A stretch of 64,000 bases of DNA, from contig JAEAOA010000822.1 of assembly GCA_016746295.1 (NCBI GenBank), forward strand, positions 950,104 to 1,014,103, in the 5' to 3' direction. Each line of letters starts with the position of its first letter. Position 1 is the first letter of the stretch. The position numbers were made by a program, and so were the translations under genes. The notes under the pieces were generated by a model that saw nothing but the letters and a program-made list of their open reading frames with translations, did not search any database and was not told the origin of the DNA. Below are positions 4,128 through 64,000 of the stretch, piece after piece. The stretch is from Potamilus streckersoni (Eukaryota).

Positions 4128-4640
4128 GTAATTCAGAGCAATCAGGTGTTAAAGTGATTGAGAACAAGAAAGTGTTTATAATAATTAGATGTATTTAATC
4201 AAGAGCAATCAGGTGTATGTAATTTTGAGTAATCAGGTGTATGTAATTTTGAGTAATCAGGTGTATATAATTTTGAGTAATCAGGTGTATGTAATTTTGA
4301 GTAATCAGGTGTATGTAATTTTGAGTAATCAGGTGTATGTAATTTTGAGTAATCAGGTGTATATAATTTTGAGCAATCAGGTGTATATAATTTTCAGCAA
4401 TCAGGTGTATATAATGTTGAGCAATCAGGTGTATATAATTTTGAGTAATCAGGTGTATGTAATTTTGAGTAATCAGGTGTATATAATTTTGAGCAATCAG
4501 GTGTATATAATTTTGAGCAATCAGGTGTATATAATTTTGAGCAATCAGGTGTATGTAAATTTGAGTAATCAGGTGAATGTAATCAAGAACAATCAGGTGT
4601 ATGTAATTAAGAGTAATTAGGTGTATGTAATTAAATAATA
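4128..4640. repeat. 21-bp minisatellite (aatcaggtgtatgtaattttgagt) x~24
   Basis: Direct reading; it produces the spurious ORF 4189..4620. Confidence 0.9.
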
Positions 4641-4890
4641 TGCAATTCCACCAACAAGTGAATCAGACAACACATTACTATTACAAGGAAAACTCATAAA
4701 TTTTAATAAATGTCATACAATGGCCATAATGAAGAGAAACAGCTACAGTCCAAAAATGCAGTAACAGAGAAATATTACAGTGATTGATAAGCCAACATTT
4801 TTGAGAACAAGATTGTGTGAAATGTTCATTCTGAAAAGAGAAAGAAAGGAGGACAAGTTAACATAAATATACAATTCACATTTTTGTTAC

Positions 4891-6112: not shown

Positions 6113-6277
6113 CAAAAAAAAAATAAGAAAGGACATCAATGTCAAAAAGGATATTATTGCTGACATTCTGGCTGAAAGAGAAGTTATACCTTGCTCTCAC
6201 TATCCAACTATGCAGTCAGGATAAATCTTTGAAATCATTTTGAAAAGTTCTGTCTTCATGCTTGAGAGTATAATACA

Positions 6278-6670
6278 TTCACTCACCAGTTCCAAACACA
6301 ATCACGTTGAAAGTCCACTGCTTGGGGATGTGGGCAAGGGTCAAAATTAGGATACATTCACTCACCAGTTCCAAACACAATCACGTTGAAAGTACACTGC
6401 TTGGGGATGTGGGCAAGGGTCAAAAGTAGGATACATTCACTCACCAGTTCCAAACACAATCATGTTGAAAGTCCACTGCTTGGGAATATGGGCAAGGATC
6501 AAAAGTAGGATACATTCACTCACCAGTTCCAAACACAATCACATTGAAAGTCCACTGCTTGGGGATGTGGGCAAGGGTCAAAAGTAGGATACATTCACTC
6601 ACCAGTTCCAAACACAATCACATTGAAAGTCCACTGCTTGGGGATGTGGGCAAGGGTCAAAAGTAGGACC
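6278..6670. repeat. 78-bp tandem array x5 duplicating the exon R 3' end plus its 5' splice site
   Basis: Each unit, on the minus strand, reads ACTTTTGACCCTTGCCCACATCCCCAAGCAGTGGACTTTCAAyGTGATTGTGTTTGGAACTG|gtgagtgaatgtatcct. The highest-coordinate copy is the real exon end; the four copies in the intron retain GTGAGT. Confidence 0.9.
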
Positions 6671-19094: not shown

Positions 19095-19439
19095 CTGTAT
19101 AAGAACATAAAGTAATCTTGTAAGGCAGTGAATAAAGTCAACATCAAAATGCCTCAATATTTTTAATATAGTTTCCTTAGATCAATTATTAGTCGCCTTT
19201 TAAGAAAAATAAAATAGAAAAGACTATCACTCTACTCATAGTCTTGGAATTGAAAGACAGCATGCCATTTTTGCTAGATCTCTCAGCTCAAAATTAAAAT
19301 GGTGTGTATTGATGGATAATTAATTACAGTAATTAATGCTCTTGTGCTCTAAAGTTAAGCCTTAATCAAAATTATATAATTTCACTTGGGTGCCAATTCT
19401 TCACAGGTTAAGTCCCATGTAATGCTGAAAACCACATAA

Positions 19440-20880
19440 GTTATGTTCATGGAAGCTAAGAAGACCTTCCTGTCCTAAACTGACTATAAGAAGACCTTCC
19501 TGTCCTGAAATGACTATAACAAGACCTTCCTGTCCTGAACTGACAATAAGAAGACCTTCCTGTCCTAAACTGACTATAAGAAGACCTTCCTGTTCTAACC
19601 TGACTATAAGAAGACCTTGCTGTCCTGAACTGACAATAAGAATACCTTCCTGTCCTGAACTGACTATAAGACCTTCCTGTCTTAAACTGACTATAAGAAG
19701 ACCTTCCTGTCCTGAACTGACAATAAGACCTTCCTGTCCTGAACTGACTATAAGACCTTCCTGTCCTGAACTGACAATAAGAAAACCTTCCTGTCCTGAA
19801 CTGACAATATGAAGACTTTCCACTCCTGAACTGACAATAACAAGACCTTCCTGTACTGAACTGACTATAAGACCAACCTGTCCCTAAACTGACTATAAGA
19901 AGACCTTCCTGTCCTAAACTGACTATAAGAAGACCTTCCTGTCCTGAACTGACAATAAGACCTTCCTGTCCTGAATTGACTATAAGACCTTCATGTCCTG
20001 AACTGACTATAAGACCTTCCTGTCCTAAACTGACAATAAGAAGACCTTCCTGTCCTGAACTGACAATAAGAAGACTTTCCAGTCCCTAAACTGACAATAA
20101 GACGACCTTCCTGTCTTGAACTGACTATTAGACCTTCCTGTCCTAAACTGACTATATGAAGACCTTCCTGTCCTAAACTGACTATAAGAAGACCTTCCTG
20201 TCATGAACTAACAATAAGACCTTTCTGTCCTGAACTGACTATAAGACCTCCCTGTCCTGAACTGACAATAAGAAGACCTTCCTGTCCTGAACTGACAATA
20301 AGACTTTCCAGTCCTGAACTGACAATAAGACCTTCCTGTCCTGAATTGACTATAAGACCTTCCTGTCCTAAACTGACTATAAGAAGACCTTCCTGTCCTG
20401 AACTGACAATAAGACCTTCCTGTCCTGAACTGACTATAAGACCTTCCCGTCCTAAACTGACAATAAGAAGACCTTCCTGTCCTGAACTGACAATAACTAG
20501 ACCTTTCTGTCCTGAACTGACTATAAGACTTCCTGTCCTGAACTGACTATAAGAAGACCTTCCAGTCCTGAACTGACAATAAGAAGACCTTCCTCTCCTG
20601 AACTGACTATAAGACCTTCCTGTCCTGAACTGACTATAAGAAGACCTTCCTGTCCTGAACTGACTATAAGACCTTCCTGTCCTGAACTGACTATAAGAAG
20701 ACCTTCCAGTCCTGAACTGACAATAAGAAGACCTTCCTGTCCTGAACTGACTATAAGACCTTCCTGTCCTGAACTGACTATAAGACCTTCCTGTCCTAAA
20801 CTGACTATAAGAAGACCTTCCTGTCCTGAACTGACTATAAGACCTTCCTGTCCTAAATTGACTGTAATTGGAATGGCAAT
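19440..20880. repeat. 1.4-kb minisatellite, 27-30-bp unit (gaccttcctgtcctgaactgactataagaa) x~50
   Basis: Direct reading; it generates long spurious ORFs on both strands (19401..19823, 19510..19812, 20521..20886). Confidence 0.9.
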
Positions 20881-20999
20881 CAACATCAGAAAAAAACTGG
20901 ACCTATATTCTTAAAATTTAGCTCAAGCTAAAAACCAGAAGATCATATATCCTCAAAATATTCTGAGACCATATAAAAATGTATCCATTGTTATTTTTT

Positions 21000-26616: not shown

Positions 26617-26870
26617 GGGGGCCCCGAGTGGCCGAGTGGTCTAAAGCGCTGTCCGTTACGGATCACTGCCATCTCACCTCTGTCTGCGTGGGTTCGAGTC
26701 TAGGATTCGGCGAATGTGGATATGTGAGAAAGCTTGCCAGTAGCTTCTCGTGGGTCGGTGGTTCTTTCCGGTGATTTCCCGGTTTCTTCCTCCACCATTA
26801 ATACTGGCCGCCATGAATAGCCTATCGTGTGCTGAAAAATGGCGTTAAGCTCAACAACAACAACAACAAC
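26617..26870 (+). mobile_element. tRNA-derived SINE, family B, full length with target-site duplication
   Basis: tRNA-like head GGGGCCCCGAGTGGCCGAGTGGTCTAAAGCGCTG...GTGGGTTCGAGTC and a (CAA)n tail. A 10-bp direct repeat agtccaattg flanks it at 26607-26616 and 26871-26880. CpG-rich relative to its surroundings. Confidence 0.8.
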
Positions 26871-27331
26871 AGTCCAATTGTAACTGCAAAGTTTAAAATA
26901 TTGCTTTAATGACACACATCATACACTGGATGAAAAACCATCATAAGCTCACACAGTCTTGCAGTCAAGTGAACAAAGAAAAGGAAGTCAGAAAGGTGTT
27001 TCTGGAACAAAACCTGAACTAAATACAAAACCTCAACAGATAGTCAAACAGATGGACAAGGGTATGACTCGATACATCTTCCATCTGTGGCAAGACTATT
27101 CTAGAACAGAAAATTTGTGAAGATTCAAAACAATTTAAAATGTTAAAATTTACAAAAAAAGGGGCACAATTTTCTGAGATAGAAGGAATTTAATGATTAA
27201 ATAAATGTTGAGCTTGGAAATATAATTTGCAATTTTAATGCTTTCATTTGATATTAAGCATGATTTTGTAAAATCTAGCACATATCACAAAACTGAATGT
27301 CCAAGAAAAGATTCTCATGAAAATATCTAAC

Positions 27332-32140: not shown

Positions 32141-32849
32141 TATATGCAACAGCTATGTAAATAAATAAGTAGATATATATACCAAGTACATTATATAGAT
32201 CTAGAATATTTTCAAATCATGACAAATTCTGAATTTCAACAATTTACTGAAAATATGGTCACACTCCATTCTAGATAAAGTGGTCCACCTCTTTAACAAC
32301 AGTCTCCCACCCCTTATGGCCAGAATCCATCAGCACCAACAAGCTTGTGTTCAAAAGTACCTCTCACAAAAGGCCACCTAACATGACCAGCGGAGAACAT
32401 ATTAATGCAAAAATATACAATTTACCCCTCACAAGCAGCCGCACTTTATTTTGCAATATGTATCCAGAACAAGTATTTTATTCATAATATATGTTAAGCA
32501 AATTCGATTTTTCTTACCCAATATCAGGTTTTCGTTACTGAAAGAAGTGTTGTCCATGTACCACTAAGGTCAATATTATATCATTAACACCTCACGAGAA
32601 GCATCATTTATTCCATAAAGCCGAGTAAGACTCAAATTTTAATCCCTACAAAATGGTAAGTGCACATAATCAGAGTAGCAGGCTGTGTTATTCCTGCACA
32701 GAATCAATGTCGATTGTTTATCTATGCTCTCTGACTCTTGTTTTCAAAGGACTATACCTATGATGACCTTCCATTACACTTTTGTTATCTTCCCAGAGAT
32801 AGGAAAATCCTGATAACTTGTTTTGCTGTAAACAGTAACTGAGTAACAA

Positions 32850-33137
<288 letters not shown>

Positions 33138-33689
33138 TGCCTTAGAACATTGAAACCAAGCGGTCTAAACCAAGAAGACTAGAAAATGAAAACTATGCAT
33201 AGAAAATGAAAACTATGCACTAGTAAAATTTAACATTTTCTAAATCATCTTATTAATCCTTCAATTTTTACTATAAAAATAACCAGTATAGAATCAAATA
33301 TCTGGGATATAATCTGCGTTACATATGTACAAAAAGTAAAAATAGATGTCACTTTGGCTTGTGGACTTTTAGAAACTTATACGTTTTCAGTTTCCGCATC
33401 TAGTCTATACAAGCTGGTTGTATTTATAGTTTTAGCACATGTGAAGACAGCCATGTAGAGGTTTACAAACACAACGTTTTTGTGTTTATTTGTTTATCGT
33501 ATATATGTTTTGTATTTGCCTTTGAAAAAGACTCATTAAGAGTCGAAAGCGCTTAGGCTAGTTAGTTACTAGTTTCGTACTGTTCGTCGTCAGTTTATAG
33601 CATCTATTTTAATTAATCCCTGACACACATGATCCCTTGGTGGATCCAGTACGCTTGAAAGGGTTGTTATTCGCCATAAGATTTGTATT

Positions 33690-35956: not shown

Positions 35957-36197
35957 GTTGTTGTTGTTGTAGGGTTTAACGCCATTTTTCAGCACAATAT
36001 AGGCTATACATGGCGGCCAATATTACTGGTGGAGAAAGAACCCTGGAAAACCCAGGAAAGAACCACCGACCCACGAGAAGCTACTGGCAGGCTTTCTCAT
36101 TGACCCACATTAGCCGAGTCTGGACTCAAACTCACGCAGACAGAGGTAAGATGGCAGTGATCTGTAACTTTCATCGCTTTAGACCACTCGGGGCCCC
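35957..36197 (-). mobile_element. SINE family B copy
   Basis: Reverse complement of the family B consensus; the (TTG)n tail is at the low-coordinate end. Flanking direct repeat tatataaattgg / tatacaaattgg. Confidence 0.8.
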
Positions 36198-37028
36198 TCT
36201 TATACAAATTGGAGGAGAAATATAGTTTCTAGATCTCAATGGGTTATATGCTCAGATGAGTAAATTTCATTTATTATATTATTTATTATAGAATCTATTT
36301 GCAACAATATAAATTATGTAGGTGGAGCAAAATCATACATTAAAAGGAGCATCCAGAATTAGTTTGTACCATAGCTTCAAATGATACTCCATAAACAAGG
36401 CCACGTATGTAATGCTGAATGACTGATACTGGTGGAGAAATTCAAGATGGCATGCATTGGTGATAAGGAAATTGCATTAAATCAGTTATTTCCAGCTGTG
36501 TCACCACTGGACTTTTTTGTTTTATTAGTCACAACTATATTAATTAAAAAGGAAATGGGTGTTTGTTTAAAGTTCCACTATGCTGTACTGTCATTTTCAG
36601 CCATTATGTGTGAGTTGACAGGATGGGATACAGTGAATTTTCATATATTCCTTAACTGTATCAAGTTAGTTTTTCTACCAACTCAAAACTGAACATGCAG
36701 TTTTGCATATGTATCAAGCTCCTTGGTCCAGAGGAAAAAAATCATTATACAAGCTTGATTAACTGTGAATACAAGCTGTAACACAACCTCATTGAATGTT
36801 CATGTAGATATTAAGGAAAATACTACCAATTCAATTACTGAATATTTAAAGGGTTAACAAAGTCCCATTGCAAAAGCCAGTTTATTATTCCTACAGATGT
36901 TATATTTCTGTGCATTGTACTACATAATTTAACATCTTGATGTGGTCACCTGGTAATAGAGTGGTCTGAACTACTTCCATTTAGCCAATCAATCACTGCC
37001 ATTTTATCTTTGTCCTCATGCATTCAAG

Positions 37029-37200
37029 TCTCAGGTGCAGTCATTGTGGATATGTGAGAAATCTTGTCAGGAGCTTAGCATGGCTTGGCGGTTCTTACCA
37101 GGGTTTTCCCATGTTCTTTTTCCACCAGTTGTACTGGCCACCATAGCCAATATTGCATTGAAAAAAGGCAATAAACTCCAAAACAGCAACAACAAAGATG
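37029..37200 (+). mobile_element. SINE family B, 5'-truncated copy
   Basis: Matches the family B body ...gtggatatgtgagaaatcttgtcagg...ccaccagttgtactggccaccatagcc... followed by a (CAA)-like tail. Confidence 0.65.
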
Positions 37201-43129: not shown

Positions 43130-46100
43130 ATACCTAATAATACCATGATCTGTTAGCACACAATCGGTCTATGATATTTGCTCTCAGAGTAAAGTATATC
43201 ATGATCTATCAGAGCATTATAAGTCTATGCTGTTTGCTCTCAGAGTAATGTATACTATGATCTGTTAGTACATAATGGGTCTATGCTGTTTGCTCTCAGA
43301 GTGGATATGTAGACAGCTTGCAAGTAGCTTCTTCTGGGGGTTTCCCGTGTTCTTCCTCCACAATTAATACTGTCTGCCATGTATAGCCTATCATGTGCTG
43401 GAAAATGGCATTAAACCATACAACATCAACATCATTGCTCTCAGAGTAATGTATACCATGATCTATTCACAATTGATGTGTATTTGTTTGTGCTGTTTGT
43501 TCTCAGATTAATGTATAATGTGATCTATTAGCACATGATGGATTCTCTCATTAGAGAGCAAAATGGGTCAATTTTGTTTGCTATTAGTGTAATGTATACC
43601 ATGACTTGTTGGCACATAATGGGTCTATGCAGTTTGGTCTCAGAGTAATGTATACCATGATCTGTTAGCACATAATGAGTCTAAACAATTTGGTCTCAGA
43701 ATAAAGTATACCATGATCTGTTAGTACATAATGATTCTATGCAGTTTGGTCTCAGAATAATGTATACCATGATTTGTTAGCACATAATGGGTCTATGCAG
43801 TTTGGTCTCAGTGTAATGTATACCATGATCTGTTAGCACATATTGGTTCTATGCAGTTTGGTCTCAGAGTAATGGATACCATGATCTGTTAGCACATAAT
43901 GGGTCTATGCAGTTTGGTCTCAGAATAATGTATACCATGATCTGTTAGTACATAATGATTCTATGCAGTTTGGTCTCAGAATAATGTATACCATGATTTG
44001 TTAGCACATAATGGGTCTATGCAGTTTGGTCTCAGATTAATGTATACCATGATCTGTTTTTACATAATGGGTCTATGCAGTTTGGTCTCAGATTAATGTA
44101 TACCATGATCTGTTTTTACATAATGAGTCTATGCAGTTTGGTCTCAGAGTAATGTGTACCATGATCTGTTAGCACATAATGGGTCTATGCAGTTTGGTCT
44201 CAGAATAATGTATACCATGATCTGTTAGCACATAATGGGTCTATGCAGTTTGGTCTCAGAATAATGTATACCATGATTTGTTAGTACATAATGATTCTAT
44301 GCAGTTTGGTCTCAGATTAATGTATACCATGATCTGTTTTTACATAATGAGTCTATGCAGTTTGGTCTCAGAGTAATGTGTACCATGATATGTTAGCACA
44401 TAATGGGTCTATGCAGTTTGGTCTCAGAATAATGTATACCATGATCTGTTAGCACATAATTGGTCTATGCAGTTTGGTCTCAGATTAATGTATACCATGA
44501 TCTGTTTTTACATAATGAGTCTATGCAGTTTGGTCTCAGATTAATGTATACCATGATCTGTTAGCACATAATTGGTCTATGCAGTTTGGTCTCAGATTAA
44601 TGTATACTATGATCTGTTTTTACATAATGAGTCTATGCAGTTTGGTCTCAGAGTAATGTGTACCATGATCTGTTAGCACATAATGGGTCTATGCAGTTTG
44701 GTCTCAGAATAATGTATACCATGATCTGTTAGCACATAATGGGTCTATGCAGTTTGGTCTCAGAATAATGTATACCATGACTTGTTGGTACATAATGAGT
44801 CTATGCAGTTTGGTCTCAGAGTAATGTATACCATGATTTGTTAGCACATAATGGGTCTATGCAGTTTGGTCTCAGAATAATGTATACCATGATTTGTTAG
44901 CACATAATGAGTCTATGCAGTTTGGTCTCAGAATAATGTATACCATGATCTGTTAGTACATAATGATTCTATGCAGTTTGGTCTCAGAATAATGTATACC
45001 ATGATTTGTTAGCACATAATGGGTCTATGCAGTTTGGTCTCAGATTAATGTATACCATGATCTGTTTTTACATAATTGGTCTATGCAGTTTGGTCTCAGA
45101 TTAATGTATACTATGATCTTTTTTTACATAATGAGTCTATGCAGTTTGGTCTCAGAGTAATGTGTACCATGATCTGTTAGCACATAATGGGTCTATGCAG
45201 TTTGGTCTCAGAATAATGTATACCATGATTTGTTAGCACATGTGTCTATGCAGTTTGGTCTCAGAATAATGTATACCTTGATTTGTTAGTACATAATGAT
45301 TCTATGCAGTTTGGTCTCAGAATAATGTATACCATGATCTGTTAGCACATAATGGGTCTATGCAGTTTGGTCTCAGAATAATGTATACCATGATCTGTTA
45401 GCACATAATGGGTCTATGCAGTTTGGTCTCAGAATAATGTATACCATGATCTGTTAGTACATAATGATTCTATGCAGTTTGGTCTCAGAATAATGTATAC
45501 CATGATTTGTTAGCACATAATGGGTCTATGCAGTTTGGTCTCAGATTAATGTATACCATGATCTGTTTTTACATAATGGGTCTATGCAGTTTGGTCTCAG
45601 ATTAATGTATACCATGATCTGTTTTTACATAATGAGTCTATGCAGTTTGGTCTCAGAGTAATGTGTACCATGATCTGTTAGCACATAATGGGTCTATGCA
45701 GTTTGGTCTCAGAATAATGTATACCATGATTTGTTAGCACGTGTCTATGCAGTTTGGTCTCAGAATAATGTATACCATGATTTGTTAGTACATAATGATT
45801 CTATGCAGTTTGGTCTCAGAATAATGTATACCATGATTTGTTAGCACATAATGTGTCTATGCAGTTTGGTCTCAGATTAATGTATACTATGATCTGTTTT
45901 TACATAATGAGTCTATGCAGTTTGGTCTCAGAATAATGTATACCATGATTTGTTAGTACATAATGATTCTATGCAGTTTGGTCTCAGAATAATGTATACC
46001 ATGATCTGTTAGCACATAATGGGTCTATGCAGTTTGGTCTCAGAATAATGTATACCATGATCTGTTAGCACATAATGGGTCTATGCAGTTTGGTCTCAGA

Positions 46101-56287: not shown

Positions 56288-57042
56288 CTGAAAATAAGGA
56301 AAAAGAAAAAAAAATAAATTAATTAAAGATTAAGTTTCATCTGTGTGATGTGTGCCTACTGTCATGTCACTTAAGGGCAGTTTACTAAAATTGTTTTCAA
56401 ATGATATCAAAAAATCAAATAAGCCTAGACCCAAATCTAAGACTGCATAATTCTGTCTGGTCAATGTCACTATTATTATTATTAATATTCACTTGAAATC
56501 ATAAATAGAAAGAACATAATAAACCCAGATTATCTTGAGAAATTAAGGGATTGCAGCTCTAGATGTATGCTGATAACATTTTGTGCACAACTTAATATGG
56601 CATGTCTCAAAAGATGGAATAATGAAGAGATTAATTCTGAAGCTCTCATGTCTTTAACCTTCTGTTAAAATCCTTTTCCTCAGACAGGAGATTTGTGTTT
56701 CATTGCTGTTAATCAAATTATATTAGACTGACAACAAGCATGAAATACTCATAGGCCAAAAATATTTCAAATATTTAAGAAATACTGCAAAATTTGAATC
56801 ATGGAATTCATTGTTTTGAATTTTCCAAGGAAGTAGAAGAAAGAATCTGCTATGCCAGGAATAATTTCAAGTAATGTCTAGTAGTCAACGAGTGATACTT
56901 AGATTAACAATATTTTAGTAATGCTTAGTATTTAATTGTTGCCAAGTATTCAACTAATGCACAGTATATGAATATGATGTCTATCATTTGGGTGTTGCCT
57001 ATAATTTGAGTTAATTTCAGTGATATCTAGTATTCAAGAATG

Positions 57043-57298
57043 TTGGTTGTTGATGCTGTAGGGTTTAATGCTATTTTTCAGCACACTATAGTCCATATAT
57101 GGCAGCCAGAATTAATGGTAAAGGAACCAGAGAAAACCCAGGAAAGAACCACCGACCTACAAGAAGCTACTGACAAGCTTTCTCACATATCTACATTGGC
57201 CGAATCCAAGATTCGAACCCACAGAGACAGAGTTGAGATGGCAGTGATCTATAACAGACAGCACTTTAGACCACTCGGCCACTTTAGTCCTCTTCAAG
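57043..57298 (-). mobile_element. SINE family B copy
   Basis: Reverse-complement match to family B over nearly its full length, including the tRNA-like head ...agaccactcggccac. Confidence 0.75.
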
Positions 57299-57429: not shown

Positions 57430-58880
57430 GGGTGATGCCTAGAATTCAAGTATTGTCAAGTATACATGTGATACCTAATATTTTTCAAGTGATGTCTAGT
57501 ATTCAAGTGATGTCTAGTATTCAAGTGATGTCTAATAGTATTCAAGTGATGTCTAGTATTCAAGTGATGTCAAGTATTCAAGTGATGTCTAATAGTATTC
57601 AAGTGATGTCTAATAGTATTCAAGTGATGTCTAATAGTATTCAAGTGATGTCAATTATTCAAGTGATGTCTAATAGTATTCAAGTGATGTCTAATAGTAT
57701 TCAAGTGATGTCTAATAGTATTCAAGTGATGTCTAATAGTATTCAAGTGATGTCAATTATTCAAGTGATGTGTAGTATTCAAGTGATGCCAGTTTCAAGT
57801 GATGTGTAGTATTCAAGTGATGCCTAGTATTCAAGAGATGTCTAATAGTATTCAAGTGATATCTAGTATTCAAGTGATGTCTAATAGTATTCAAGTGTCT
57901 AATAGTATTCAAGTGATGTCTAATAGTATTCAAGTGATGTCAATTATTCAAGTGATGTTTAGTATTCAAGTGATGCATAGTATTCAAGTGATGTGTAGTA
58001 TTCAAATGATGCCTAGTATTCAAGTGATGTCTAGTATTCAAGTGATGTGTAGTATTCAAGTGATGTGTAGTATTCAAATGATGCCTAGTATTCAAGTGAT
58101 GTCTAATAGTATTCAAGTGATGTCTAGTATTCAAGTGATGTCTAGTATTCAAGTGAAGTCTAATAGTATTCAAGTGATGTCTAGTATTCAAGTAATGTCT
58201 AATAGTATTCAAGTGATGTCTAATAGTATTCAAGTGATATTCAAGTGATATCTAATAGTATTCAAGTGATGTCTAATAGTATTCAAGTGATGTCTAATAG
58301 TATTCAATTGATGCCTAATAGTATTCAAGTGATGTCTAATAGTATTCAAGTGATGTCTAGTATTCAAGTGATGTCTAATAGTATTCAATTGATGCCTAAT
58401 AGTATTCAAATGATGCCTAATAGTATTCAAGTGATGTCTAATAGTATTCAATTGATGCCTAATAGTATTCAAGTGATGTCTAATAGTATTCAAGTGATGC
58501 CTAATAGTATTCAAGTGATGTCTAATAGTATTCAATTGATGCCTAATAGTATTCAAGTGATGCCTAATAGTATTCAAATGATGCCTAATAGTATTCAAAT
58601 GATGCCTAATAGTATTCAATTGATGCCTAATAGTATTCAAGTGATGTCTAATAGTATTCAAGTGATGCCTAATAGTATTCAAGTGATGTCTAATAGTATT
58701 CAATTGATGCCTAATAGTATTCAAGTGATGTCTAATAGTATTCAATTGATGCCTAATAGTATTCAATTGATGCCTAATAGTATTCAAGTGATGCCTAATA
58801 GTATTCAAATGATGCCTAATAGTATTCAATTGATGCCTAGTATTCAAGTGAATCCTGATATTCATCTGATGCCAAGTATT
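57430..58880. repeat. 1.45-kb minisatellite, 21/24-bp unit (tattcaagtgatgtctaatag) x~65
   Basis: Direct reading; it produces 125-212-aa spurious ORFs on both strands. Confidence 0.95.
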
Positions 58881-59044: not shown

Positions 59045-59183
59045 CTTCTTTGTAACAATGAAGGACACTATCCCACCATGGCTGGTGATTGCTTTCCTTA
59101 AGTTAGTTTTCTCGGAGAAAGACATGTTCATTGACAAGTCCAATGCAAATTGACAGTTTGCAAAAACTGCAGGCAAGGGGGTC
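59045..59183 (-). CDS. PARP4: PARP4-like exon A (BRCT N-terminal part)
   Basis: Minus-strand translation TPLPAVFANCQFALDLSMNMSFSEKTNLRKAITSHGGIVSFIVTKK aligns to human PARP4 residues ~5-45 (GIFANCIFCLKV...GGKFSFSLNPQ). Acceptor ctatttcag at 59184-59186; an alternative strong acceptor cccccttgcctgcag would give the upper limit 59166. Donor AAG|gtaata. No in-frame ATG is present, so the start codon must lie in an upstream exon. Confidence 0.6.
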
Positions 59184-59339
59184 CTGAAATAGTATTGAAA
59201 GGTAAGGCACAGAAAAATCTAGTTCTGACAATGAATAATATTCATACCTGTTAATTATGAGACACACCAAATTACAAAGCTGTACAAAAAGCTTTTTTAA
59301 TTCCTTGAGTTCAGGAATCTATTGAAACAGCTATTTTAA

Positions 59340-59995
59340 TCAAAGCATGTGAATAATACAAGAACTTAAAAGCCAATACTTCATTGCTGTACACATCAAT
59401 GTTCTGTCATCTATGTAAAGGCTCACTATAATAGTCAATGCACAATACAATGATCCCTCATGTAATGGTCGGTCATCATATAATGGTCTTTCACTATAAT
59501 CATCCCTCACTATGCAATGGTCCCTCACTATAATTGCTACTCAATAATGGTCTCTCAATATATAATGGTCCTTCACTATTATAAATCCCTCACCATGTAA
59601 TGGTCCCTCACTATATAATAGTCTTTCACTATCATGGTCCCTCACTATATAATTGTCTTTCACTATAATCATCCCTCACTATGCAATGGTGGTGGTTGTT
59701 GTTGTTCTTGTTGTGGGGCTTAACACCATTTCTCAGCACATGATAGGCTATACATGGCGGCCAGTATTAATGGTGGAGGAAAAACCTGGGAAATCCACAG
59801 AAAGAACCACTGACCCACGAGAAGCTACTAGCAAGCTTTCTCACATATCCACATTCACCGAATCTTAAACTCGAACCCACACAGACAGAGGTGACTTGGC
59901 TGTGATCCAAAATGGACAGCGCCACTCAGGGCCCCTTATGCAATGGTACCTCACTATGATTGCTATTGTATAATGGTCCTTCAATATAATTCTAC
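59340..59995. repeat. 22-bp minisatellite (taatggtccctcactatataa) split by the SINE-B insertion
   Basis: The array occupies 59340-59688 and 59936-59995, on either side of the SINE. Confidence 0.85.
59689..59935 (-). mobile_element. SINE family B copy inserted into the 22-bp minisatellite
   Basis: Reverse-complement match to family B. The flanking direct repeat ~tatgcaatggt sits on both sides, inside the minisatellite. Confidence 0.8.
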
Positions 59996-61079
59996 TTGAA
60001 CTTCCAAGTTCATTTTAATTCATTATAATGTCATTTCACATAACTAATAAAAAGTAGATAGTCCTACACATGGTATCCCTGTAGTTCCTTGTTTTGACCT
60101 CCACCCCTCAATGCCAACATTTGAGCCTACTGGCTGAGAACCTTTTTAAGGGCAAATATCAGATGGGTGTTTGCATTTGTTTTCATGCTCTATAATTATA
60201 CAAATGGCTACATGGTGTAGATCTCAATAGTTTCCAAGTAAAAACAGGGGCTTAGTCCCTTGTGAGTTAAGAATGGACCCCTGGACAAATATTAGTTGCA
60301 TTATAATCTGTTTTTCCTTTCCAATAACCATACATGTATGATTATAGGGTAGCGATCTCAATAGTTTCCAATTTACAACCCAAAGAACAAACCCTGGTTT
60401 AATGCCTGTTTCATGTATTCCAGAGGTTTCGGAAATGCTTGCTCATGCATATTTGGATACCAATTTTTTTATCAGGGACACAGGAAATCATTTAGGTGGG
60501 AGTTCTCCATACTCATATAATGGATGGGTGACAAAATTCAAAGACTTTCCTGTCCTGCTTCAGCCACCTGCTTGGTTGGAAAATGAGTTGATTAATTACC
60601 TGTGCTGATATTTACAATGACAGAAAGACCTGTTTATGTACATGTCATTATAGGAGTACATCAAAAGAACATGATGCAATAGCTTGGTGGCTTGTTTAAA
60701 GACTCCGATAGGCATATTGGTGGGACAATTCTTCAATCAAGCAAACACTCAGACATGAGAGGCATTCAACTCTGGAGTTATCTAAAATTTTGTAAAATCA
60801 CCAAATACTCTTGCCAAAGCAGCGTAACAATTCCTGACAATCTACACTCATATGACTTTCACTTACACTATTTTCATGTGTCTAGTAGTATGGGAATTTA
60901 ATACATATGGACTGTATAACTATCTCCATGTGCTTCAGTAAAAGAGCTAATAACCAAAATAGTGTTGATTAATACTGGTAATTGAATTTATGACATGAAA
61001 AAATATTTGTTGTCACATTGCATGTTTACCAATAATTATAATTATAACCTGTACTATGCTTATTTATTATTATAGTAAA

Positions 61080-61320
61080 GAACTTCTGATATTTCATTTA
61101 CTTACCCTGTGTTATCCTTGTTCAACAATTATCTTATTCTGTGTTACCCTTGTTCAGCAATTACCCACACTGTGTAACCATTCTTTAAAGATTACCTACC
61201 CTATGTTACCCTTGTTCAGCAATTACCTATCCAGTGTTACCCTTGTTAAACAATTACCTATCCTGTGTTACCCTTGTTCAACAATTACCTACCTTGTGTT
61301 ACCCTTGTTCAAGCTCTTTG
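61080..61320. repeat. 33-bp tandem array x7, each unit carrying a 5' splice-site-like motif
   Basis: The minus-strand unit is gataggtaattgttgaacaagggtaacacag. AACAAGG|GTAACA is the same motif that ends the SGIK ORF at 61303. Confidence 0.85.
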
Positions 61321-61909
61321 GATTAATCTTGATCTTGTCCTGATTGAGTTTGCCAGCTGCATCTAATCCTATAGCATCAAGCACACATCCACCTGTGGTG
61401 ATATTCATTTTGCTGCTAAGAGGGGCAAGACCCTTCCTTGGATGCATGCTAACAGCATGCGAGTCGGAATCACTTTTCTCAATGCCAAGGTGTGCACCAC
61501 CTAATCCACTCATCAGGTTTTGATGATCATCCTTCAAACCACTTGCTGTACTGTAATGACTGCTGGTCAAACTACTGACAATGCTAGATTTAATACCACT
61601 CTTACTGGTGAAATGATCCAGATGTGGAGTGGCTGTCACTTTAATTCCACTCATACTGATGGTATTGCTAGAAAGGAGACTACTTTCCCCAGCAATAAGA
61701 CTATGCAGCAACTTGCTGGCAAGGTTGCCATCAATTAAACCCCCACTCAAGTTGGTACATTGTTTGACTGCCTTGTTGATGCCAGTTGTGCCCAAATTTG
61801 CCTTCAACTGATCAGAAGAACTGACATCTGTGCACATTTTACTAGCGCACAAATTTGTCAATGTTCTCTTTCCATCAACATGTATACCAAGCCTGCTTCT
61901 GTCAGCCAT
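61303..61909 (-). CDS. Ser/Gly-rich SGIK-repeat ORF: candidate 5' coding exon (N-terminal extension of the PARP4-like gene) or a separate gene
   Basis: A 636-nt open frame on the minus strand (ATG at 61907-61909): MADRSRLGIHVDGKRT...SMSGIKVTA...SKSGIKSSI...GGCVLDAIGLDAAGKLNQDKIKINPKSLNKG. The region is unusually long and GC-richer than its AT-rich surroundings. It ends at a plausible donor AAGG|gtaaca in phase 1, which is compatible with the alternative acceptor of exon A at 59166. A related ORF with the same SGIK motif, in another frame, lies at 61950-62144. I see no homology to a known family. Confidence 0.3.
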
Positions 61910-64000
61910 ATTAGACTTGATCACAGTTCCAAGATTTTCTGAGCTTTTATTATTTTTGTCCAGAGATCAATTTCTGCTGTGAAAGCTTAATACCACTGAG
62001 AGTGTTTGTGCCACCAATTAAAGAACTCAAACTAGGGTTTGTCTTCTCCAGGTTTTGACTACCATTGCTAATAAAGATATTTGTCAAAGTCTTTGAATCA
62101 GACGAAGGAACTCCTGGACTGAATTGACCAATATATTTCATCAAGGTGACGTAGTCTTTGTTTACATCAACTGGATCCCTTTTGGTTATTTATTTTTAAA
62201 AAGCCTTCAAAATACTGTCATACACTTGTATACCTTCTGAATTGAATTGATGTATCTTGCCTGAAATATAAAATACATTAAGTGGTTGATCAATTTAATC
62301 TGTTTTTCTATATTAAAATGTGTATTAGCTTAAATATAAAACAAATTCAGGTGGTTAATCAATTTGATGTTTATAGATTATGATAATGGATCAAATGGGA
62401 CTTACATTCCAATTAATTCAGTAAAACTCACATGATTCCTGACAAATTTAAAAACTAATTTTAGCTTTAAAATTTAATAATAACATAGTTATAACAAAGT
62501 TTATTCAATCATGATTTTTTAGTGAACTGCACATTAATTGTCATAACATAAGTTCCAGATGAAAATTATCGATCACTAATGACTTTTACAATGGAAGAAT
62601 GGGTCAAGAAAATTGACATTGGAATTAGCTATTACCTACCAGTGCAGGGGGAATCAAGGTAGTCAAGAGCAGTTTTATTCATCTCCTGTATGGGTTTTCA
62701 AATATGAATGATATAGAGGAATAATATACAGTAAGTTTTATTCTTAACTTTTACATTCAACATTTCTTCACAATTATAATTTAGTATGATGTAAAAGGTA
62801 ACTAAAACAATGTGAATTAACAGCCATGTCTTTACTATTTTTAACATGCAAGAAGGAACATATCTGCATGGGAAAACGTTTAATGGGGACACCCCCATTA
62901 ACTTCACTGTACCTACAAATGTCAAAGTACATTATCATTGAATTTGGTATTAAGTATGTTTTGATTATACAATAATCTTCTAAAGAATTTTGATGGACAA
63001 GTTGTGAAATAAAGTAAATAAATGCCATTTAAAGGTATGTCAAACCAAATTCTCCAAAACAACACTTATAGCTTAATCAATGACTCAGTGCATGTATATG
63101 AGTCATGAAAGTTGTATGATAAACATAGGAACTCATACGAGGATTCAGTTACTAAGCAGAGGATCTTACACAAATCCTCAATTCAAATAAAATTTAGGGA
63201 AAAAAGTTTGAACAATTTCTGTCTGGTGAGATTTGCAATGTAATCCAAAATTTACGAAAAAATATCATAGATGAGATGGCTTCAAATTTTGATGTTCAAA
63301 CCGACCTGAGATTGAATTACATTTTCAAATGTATTAAAAATCAATTGATACACATTTTCTACATTCCACTACTAATGATATAGCAGAGGTCCCTTTCTAG
63401 CACTAAGTGCAAACATGGGTGTTAAAAGTGGTAGATAATGTCATGTAAAAACAAAATGCATTGGCAGAATCCTGCATTTACAATTCAAAAAAAAAAGAAA
63501 CGGGATTTCTCAGACTGTTATAATTTGAAGGTAACTTTCAAACTTGTTACAAAATATTTTTCTCCACCACTCTTTATTATTTTCAAAGCAGAGAACAAAC
63601 ATACAATAACTAAATTAAATAATCTTTAGTTCCATGTAGAAATTCTGGATCATGATTGTCTTTCAACTATAAATTCAGTTATGTGAACTGACGTTTGTTA
63701 ATATCAATAAACTGTGATGCAAATCAATTACAAAAGCCTATACAAATTTAATCAAAAAAAAAATTTAATGGAGAATTAGAAGAACATTATTGTTCCTGCG
63801 TAAACACTAATTGCTGTAGTGCTGGTTCTCAAAACATAATTCCATATCAATATAATTGATTACATAGGCTAGACTGGCTGAGAAAAGGAGCAAACACCAA
63901 CCAGATCATCAATTCCATGCATAGACAAGAACTACTAATAACCTTACCATAAAACATAATCCCCAGATTGTAAAATACTGATCACAGTGACTGATGGTTA

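Follow-up and report, generated by a model that had tools for sequence, protein, structure and literature searches.

Vault PARP (PARP4, or vPARP) keeps a common order of parts in human and in the mollusc and cnidarian orthologues that we compared (P0105-P0108): BRCT, PARP regulatory-like and catalytic domains, VIT, vWA and an MVP-interaction domain (PF26156, taken from precomputed annotation). In all compared proteins from outside the Unionidae the N-terminus lies 2-10 residues ahead of the first BRCT strand (MALFEGC, MSLFNDC, MSIFIDY); the four non-unionid sequences, from a clam, a snail, a mussel and a coral, begin at the BRCT domain, with MALFEGCQIVLDL in Ruditapes, MSLFNDCQIALDL in Nucella, MSIFIDYQIVLDL in Mytilus and MGTFQASDIFHGVQFCIDF in Acropora. 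The human protein starts MVMGIFANC, and the Potamilus gene resembles human PARP4 exon by exon, the human sequence serving only as a guide. The freshwater mussel Potamilus streckersoni (Unionidae) shares the domain order, whereas its PARP4 carries 206 extra residues at the N-terminus and that of a second unionid, Sinanodonta woodiana, carries 282. The window analyzed here, a stretch of 64,000 nucleotides from the Potamilus genome (GenBank assembly GCA_016746295.1, contig JAEAOA010000822.1, positions 950,104 to 1,014,103 of the forward strand), contains near its end a minus-strand open reading frame (ORF). This ORF is most likely the first coding exon of the Potamilus PARP4 orthologue, spliced to the BRCT exon and encoding an N-terminal tail of about 206 residues.

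The ORF is identical to a deposited coding sequence, is conserved in Sinanodonta, has coding-like codon usage and is served by in-phase consensus splice sites. When 1.84 billion representative proteins were searched exhaustively with HMMER, it had exactly one match, the P. streckersoni poly[ADP-ribose] polymerase KAK3593675.1 (A0AAE0SKK7; P0103 in our set; 2363 amino acids), of which it forms residues 1-206 at 100% identity. The original prediction for this DNA had described the ORF as unannotated and had suggested a database search of its product; the search shows that the ORF is already deposited, in the PARP4 model of the same species. The accompanying idea, that the ORF supplies the start-codon exon of the PARP4-like gene as an N-terminal extension, agrees both with KAK3593675.1 and with the homologous extension that precedes IFANCQFALDL in Sinanodonta. 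The part of P0103 covered by the window maps exactly on the minus strand as 21 exons separated by GT-AG introns, and in the frame of exon 2 there is no ATG downstream of its upstream in-frame stop. Pfam places BRCT at residues 211-290 of P0103 (PF00533, E = 3.3e-10; PF16589 and PF12738 also match), the PARP catalytic domain at 607-783 (PF00644, E = 8.5e-32), VIT at 851-963 (PF08487, E = 1.5e-35) and vWA at 1099-1255 (PF13768/PF00092), with no domain in residues 1-206; exon 2 by itself gives a BRCT match at E = 0.006. PF26156 (PARP4_MVP-ID) is among the precomputed domains of P0103 and was absent from our own Pfam scan at E <= 0.001; its coding part lies outside the window. In this reading the ORF is nothing unusual: an exon, already in GenBank, that gives a member of a known gene family a lineage-specific tail. 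It is probably spliced and translated as the gene models have it; the Potamilus model is an automated Funannotate/EVidenceModeler consensus, for which transcripts from RNA-seq, proteins and ab initio predictors could serve as input (PMC7937423).

Other look-ups returned less. Exact-product look-ups with the 206-, 211- and 63-residue ORF products and with P0103 found no record, and a word-indexed protein search with the 211-residue ORF found no match. The latter is a false negative, since the exhaustive search gave the parent protein at 100% identity. Matches in the word-indexed search span about 0.55-1.65 times the query length (120-359 residues for a 219-residue query), and the 2363-residue parent was thus missed. 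A null result from this search with an exon-sized query does not show that homologues are lacking.

Features of the PARP4 5' region and of its interspersed repeat, in window coordinates
Feature	Position	Strand	Details
Upstream open frame	61950..62186	minus	TTG 62144, ATG 62141, TAA 61952-61950; homologous to Sinanodonta residues 2-71
Frameshift interval, 14 nt TCTCTGGACAAAAA	61953..61966	minus	includes A5 run 61957-61953
Annotated start codon	61907..61909	minus	context tctaatATGg; A at -3, G at +4
Exon 1, coding part, PARP4-like gene	61293..61909	minus	205 codons + 2 nt (phase 2); KAK3593675.1 residues 1-206
31-bp minisatellite, 6.9 copies	61098..61312	minus	copy 1 consists of the final ~19 nt of exon 1 and the donor
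Splice donor AAG/GTAGGTAA of deposited model	61285..61295	minus	GT at 61292-61291; 9.2 bits
Intron 1, 2109 nt	59184..61292	minus	with the 31-bp array, a further array of 34-bp units (59422-59690) and one copy of the ~225-bp interspersed repeat (59697-59920)
Exon 2, start of BRCT (TPLPAVFANCQFALDL...VTKK)	59045..59183	minus	acceptor TATTTCAG/GAC
~225-bp repeat copies	59697-59920, 57041-57262, 26646-26871, 35957-36162, 36992-37195, 43301-43434

The ORF extends from its ATG at 61909-61907 to a TAG at 61291-61289, a total of 206 codons, and from stop to stop it covers 225 codons (61292-61966). A length of 202 codons (61303-61909) had been proposed earlier; the ATG and the open frame are real, and the smaller number comes from cutting the full 206 codons at the chosen donor 61303. 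The ATG at 61909 has a strong context, and its Met is conserved in Sinanodonta (MTDRS). This is the sole long open frame in the window not built by tandem repeats, as the other long frames (233, 224, 218 and 209 codons) all four lie inside minisatellites or tandem arrays. When the window was simulated 100 times with a second-order Markov model, the longest frame averaged 138 codons with a maximum of 214, and none of the 100 runs reached 225. In simulations with the local composition of the ORF (G+C 0.40), the mean of the maxima was 171 codons and the largest 278. Because these simulations also reach 225 codons, the length of the ORF by itself is suggestive but not conclusive, and the earlier statement that it is far longer than chance allows was too strong. 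The G+C content over the ORF is 0.41-0.44 versus 0.25-0.31 just upstream.

Codon usage was evaluated by log-likelihood, with the 1023 codons of exons 2-21 as the training set and intron trinucleotides as the background. Exon 1 scores 0.237 bits per codon in its own frame and -0.37 and -0.51 in the other two, and the genuine exons, scored with leave-one-out training, average 0.28 (range 0.06-0.53). Among 830 intron windows of equal length, none reached the score of exon 1 even with stops ignored. A transposable element or repeat origin was also considered and rejected, the exon being single-copy within the window; an Rfam search of the 56-64 kb region gave no match.

A search with full-length P0103 recovered the PARP4 proteins of Sinanodonta woodiana (P0104), Ruditapes, Nucella, Acropora and Mytilus. 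Sinanodonta belongs to a different unionid subfamily, and in its protein (locus ACJMK2_039226, GCA_046254885.1) 282 residues precede IFANCQFALDL in one frame. The Sinanodonta gene spans 328 kb. The two unionid proteins share a homologous extension, the same residues at the junction, the same domain set and a core that is 90% identical; they differ in that the Sinanodonta extension is continuous and 88 residues longer, while Potamilus needs a 1-nucleotide correction for read-through. In a tblastn comparison of P0104 with the window, residues 72-280 align to the main ORF (61960-61295) at 66% identity and residues 2-71 align to 62177-61953, in the frame of a shorter upstream ORF, at 60% identity. 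Judged from the annotated Sinanodonta protein, neither alignment has a gap that breaks the frame. In the global alignment of P0103 with P0104 the extension is 65% identical (74% over the first 100 residues), the core 90% and the C-terminal linker (residues 1451-2150) 32%. Given 65% versus 32% identity, the extension is clearly under stronger constraint than the least conserved coding stretch of this protein. Both subfamilies fall within a clade with a crown age of about 150 million years (PMC5437074). Outside the unionids no homologue of the extension was found among the 1.84 billion representative proteins or the compared PARP4 sequences, a scan of Joint Genome Institute metagenomes for relatives of the exon yielded none, and a literature search on PARP4 N-terminal extensions found no papers.

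The upstream ORF had also been predicted, as a second, out-of-frame ORF at 61950-62144, and it exists. Either a frameshift or an intron had been offered to explain why the two ORFs are in different frames. The frameshift is supported by the Sinanodonta protein, which runs through both ORFs in one frame. An intron is ruled out, as the two Sinanodonta alignments overlap by 8 nucleotides and leave no room for one. Since the Sinanodonta frame is continuous and the alignments abut, the second ORF is the 5' part of the same ancestral exon. Its codon score is 0.09-0.13 bits per codon in frame and -0.59 and -0.44 in the other frames. In the Potamilus assembly a 1-nucleotide shift cuts the first ~76 codons of the tail (62177-61953) off from the remainder; its position is bounded by the TGA of the downstream frame (61969-61967) and the TAA of the upstream frame (61952-61950). 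Deletion of one A gives ...KLISGQNNKSSENLG..., or in another extract ...SQQKLISGQNNKSSENLGTVIKSNMADRS..., to be set beside ...KLLSADEDSNNKNSENHG... and ...SHQKLLSADEDSNNKNSENHGIVIKSNMTDRS... in Sinanodonta.

Because the upstream piece is open for 79 codons with coding-like usage, the shift is likely an artefact, a polymorphism or very recent. A residual homopolymer indel at the A5 run is plausible in an assembly of PacBio continuous long reads built with wtdbg2 and polished with arrow and NextPolish (PMC7937423). If the shift is an artefact or a polymorphism, translation would really begin at 62141 with the Met of MKYIG, which is the first Met common to both species in the repaired frame and has a weak context (T at -3), and the tail would be about 283 residues long. 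Alternatively, if the shift is a real and recent mutation, initiation may have moved to the conserved internal Met at 61909. The start Met of the Sinanodonta protein (MDLIDANKK...) aligns to an AGG (Arg) codon at 62178-62180 of the Potamilus minus strand (KRDPVDVNK...), and in-frame stops lie just upstream of that codon, at about 62187-62195; therefore, the two species cannot share the Sinanodonta initiation codon. A bolder scenario combines these elements: unionids would have evolved a selectively maintained vault PARP tail of about 200-280 residues, without homologue elsewhere, from upstream sequence recruited after loss of the BRCT-adjacent start, and the Potamilus frameshift would be real, with the tail being remodelled and initiation moved to Met 61909. 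We regard that combination as a tentative proposal with perhaps one chance in four. A +1 ribosomal frameshift of the antizyme kind at the AAA-TAA-T site is much less likely.

At the deposited junction, the donor AAG/GTAGGT (exon end 61293) is joined to the acceptor TTTCAG/G (exon start 59183), in frame and without stops. The product reads ...SLNKGNTR-TPLPAVFANCQFALDL (...KGNTR-TPLPAVFANC), and Sinanodonta has ...KGNTG-IPLPAIFANC at the same place. The in-frame TAG at 61291-61289 sits within this donor. It had been proposed instead that donor 61303 (AGG/GTAACA) is joined to an acceptor at 59166, and the main isoform could use that pair, to encode ...SLNK-V-FANC. The pair is indeed in frame and free of stops and omits nine residues, GNTRTPLPA; both mixed donor and acceptor combinations are out of frame. 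GTAAC donors are found elsewhere in the gene, at exons 11 and 20, the 59166 acceptor has a long pyrimidine tract, and the nine residues removed could be conserved merely from their overlap with splice signals. However, a donor weight matrix built from the other 19 donors of this gene, which themselves range from 5.4 to 12.3 bits, gives 9.2 bits to 61293 and 6.6 bits to 61303. The nine residues are kept in both deposited models, which use 61293/59183, and Sinanodonta (GNTGIPLPA) matches seven of them. The acceptors score alike, with 3.0 bits for 59183 and 2.9 bits for 59166. The predicted reading NKG-V-FANC contains a G that is not encoded.

The 31-bp minisatellite at the end of exon 1 bears on this choice. 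The array puts 13 donor-like GT sites in the 5' end of intron 1, including 61303, whose motif is part of the 31-bp unit, recurs five times in the array and carries little specific information. As the array scatters donor-like sites, the presence of a good donor is less informative than it appears. Given the above, use of 61303/59166 by the main isoform is unlikely, roughly one chance in eight in our estimate, and the deposited junction, 61293/59183, is favoured; the 61303/59166 pair may serve an alternative isoform. The last copy of the array contains a near-perfect donor motif, AGG/GTAAGT, at 61106.

The tail is rich in Ser (15.5%), Leu (12.1%), Gly (10.2%), Lys (8.7%) and Thr (7.3%), these five making up 54% of its residues, and has a net charge of +8. 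A signal peptide had been suggested as something to check; by hydropathy, with no dedicated predictor, the N-terminus MADRSRLGIHVDGKRTLTNL is polar, with no hydrophobic segment and no signal-peptide-like feature. The highest 19-residue Kyte-Doolittle mean in the tail is 0.98, at about residues 170-188. The GGxxL motif reported before is present twice (GGAHL, GGCVL). SGIK also recurs as reported, at residues 87 and 104 of the main ORF and once more in the upstream ORF, and any 4-mer reaches at least three copies in about 2% of shuffles. A repeat architecture, in contrast, was not significant by Smith-Waterman alignment against shuffles, whether the upstream ORF was compared with the main ORF, the first half with the second or the tail with the rest of the protein (p = 0.12, 0.05 and 0.49). 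The SGIK repeat is at most a recurring short motif, [ST]-G-[ILG]-x. Internal duplication and origin from another part of PARP4 were rejected on the same comparisons.

AlphaFold2 gave the tail a mean predicted local distance difference test score (pLDDT) of 31, with all 206 residues below 50, from an alignment of two sequences only. Pfam and PDB sequence searches with the ORF gave sub-threshold matches only (E = 0.039 in Pfam, below the cut-off, and E = 0.57 in PDB). The tail may be disordered. It resembles lineage-specific disordered tails derived from a recruited alternative first exon in its biased composition (S, L, G, K, T), its lack of a domain match, its pLDDT below 50 throughout, its evolution at a higher rate than the folded core and its in-frame indels. 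It differs from the general class in that its disorder is a prediction and in that it is better conserved than the protein's own C-terminal linker. One could speculate that the tail is a flexible, possibly phospho-regulated arm before the BRCT module.

Since non-unionid PARP4 proteins start M-x-x right before BRCT and the unionid exon 2 lacks a start codon, the upstream exon was likely recruited in the unionid lineage. Under this scenario, unionid PARP4 would have lost the start codon adjoining BRCT and initiation would now occur in the upstream exon, at ATG 61909 in the deposited model. Exon 1, ending in phase 2 at 61293, would be spliced across the 2.1-kb intron to exon 2 at 59183. The recruited exon would thereby supply both a start codon and a new tail, about 200-280 residues long, for which no fold is predicted with confidence.

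Several points weigh against assigning the ORF to PARP4 in this way. Both gene models, Potamilus and Sinanodonta, are automated consensus predictions. The Sinanodonta exon is known from the annotated protein, and small predicted introns there may hide defects. In the genome paper on A. woodiana, proteins of Potamilus were among the homology evidence (PMC12048480); should the assembly described there be the GCA_046254885.1 of P0104, the two junctions would not be independent. The Sinanodonta model is nevertheless more than a projection of the Potamilus protein, as it is 88 residues longer at the N-terminus. In neutral, substitution-only simulations a 205-codon frame stays open in about 9-13% of cases at this level of amino acid identity; the argument from conservation is therefore carried by how high the identity is and by the fact that the indels keep the frame. 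A pLDDT from a two-sequence alignment is weak as evidence of disorder. Lastly, the ORF has its own in-frame TAG at the donor and an AATAAA lies about 225 nucleotides downstream, which makes a separate small gene conceivable.

Such a gene is the main rival to an exon of PARP4. The ORF would then be a unionid-specific small gene of about 206-290 residues, lying head-to-tail upstream of PARP4 and fused to it by gene predictors, and PARP4 itself would start in a tiny ATG exon or elsewhere. Chimeric models are common in automated annotation, and the extension has no homologue in any compared non-unionid PARP4 or in the representative protein set. The use of Potamilus proteins in the A. woodiana annotation also counts in favour of a fusion made by predictors. 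Against it, exon 2 without a start codon needs an upstream coding exon, and the donor that closes the ORF is strong (9.2 bits) and in phase with exon 2, just 2.1 kb away. Both the adjacency and the junction residues (KGNT-x-x-PLPA-x-FANC) recur in a second subfamily, within a clade of about 150 million years (PMC5437074), and the Sinanodonta model, reaching 88 residues beyond the Potamilus protein, was not merely copied. A separate gene is therefore improbable in our judgement, about as much so as the alternative junction. A frame that stays open in non-coding DNA by chance, or a dead, untranslated pseudo-exon, is a highly improbable explanation: 64-kb simulations with regional composition reach 225 codons fairly often, the assembly has a frameshift within the ancestral exon and there is no domain, predicted fold or homologue beyond one family, but the frame-specific, exon-like codon usage is matched by no intron window, the amino acid identity to an open frame in another subfamily is 65% versus 32% for the C-terminal linker, and no alignment gap in the main ORF, to judge by the annotated Sinanodonta protein, breaks the frame.

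The gene contains other repeats. A 79-bp tandem repeat (5.0 copies, 96% identity, 6273-6668) covers the last ~66 nucleotides of PARP4 exon 19, which ends at 6603, as well as the donor of that exon, CTG/GTGAGTGA. Its period is not divisible by 3, and it is the gene's second minisatellite to lie across an exon-intron junction. In intron 19, four extra copies of the 79-bp unit match residues 1196-1218 of the Sinanodonta protein. In intron 2, a 21/42-bp minisatellite of about 72 copies (57432-58851) creates spurious ORFs of 211-212 residues on both strands (HLNTIR..., NSIQVMS...), and similar repeat-made ORFs occur at 19401-20902, 4189-4662 and 32718-33178. An interspersed repeat of about 225 bp is present in at least six copies in both orientations in the PARP4 introns, with 69-89% identity. 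It has the look of a short interspersed nuclear element and carries similar pseudo-ORFs of 71-91 residues on the plus strand; the 56-64 kb region searched gave no Rfam match to it.

The value of these results is chiefly for annotation. The 5' end of a mollusc PARP4 gene is fixed within the window, the junction proposed for it is corrected, and a probable single-base assembly indel or recent frameshift is flagged, by which the deposited protein is shorter by about 76 residues. There is no sign of a new mechanism or system. For the family, the vault PARP of freshwater mussels appears to carry a moderately conserved orphan tail before its BRCT domain that was found in no other animal compared, and it may provide a small example of a gene gaining an N-terminus via a new first exon.

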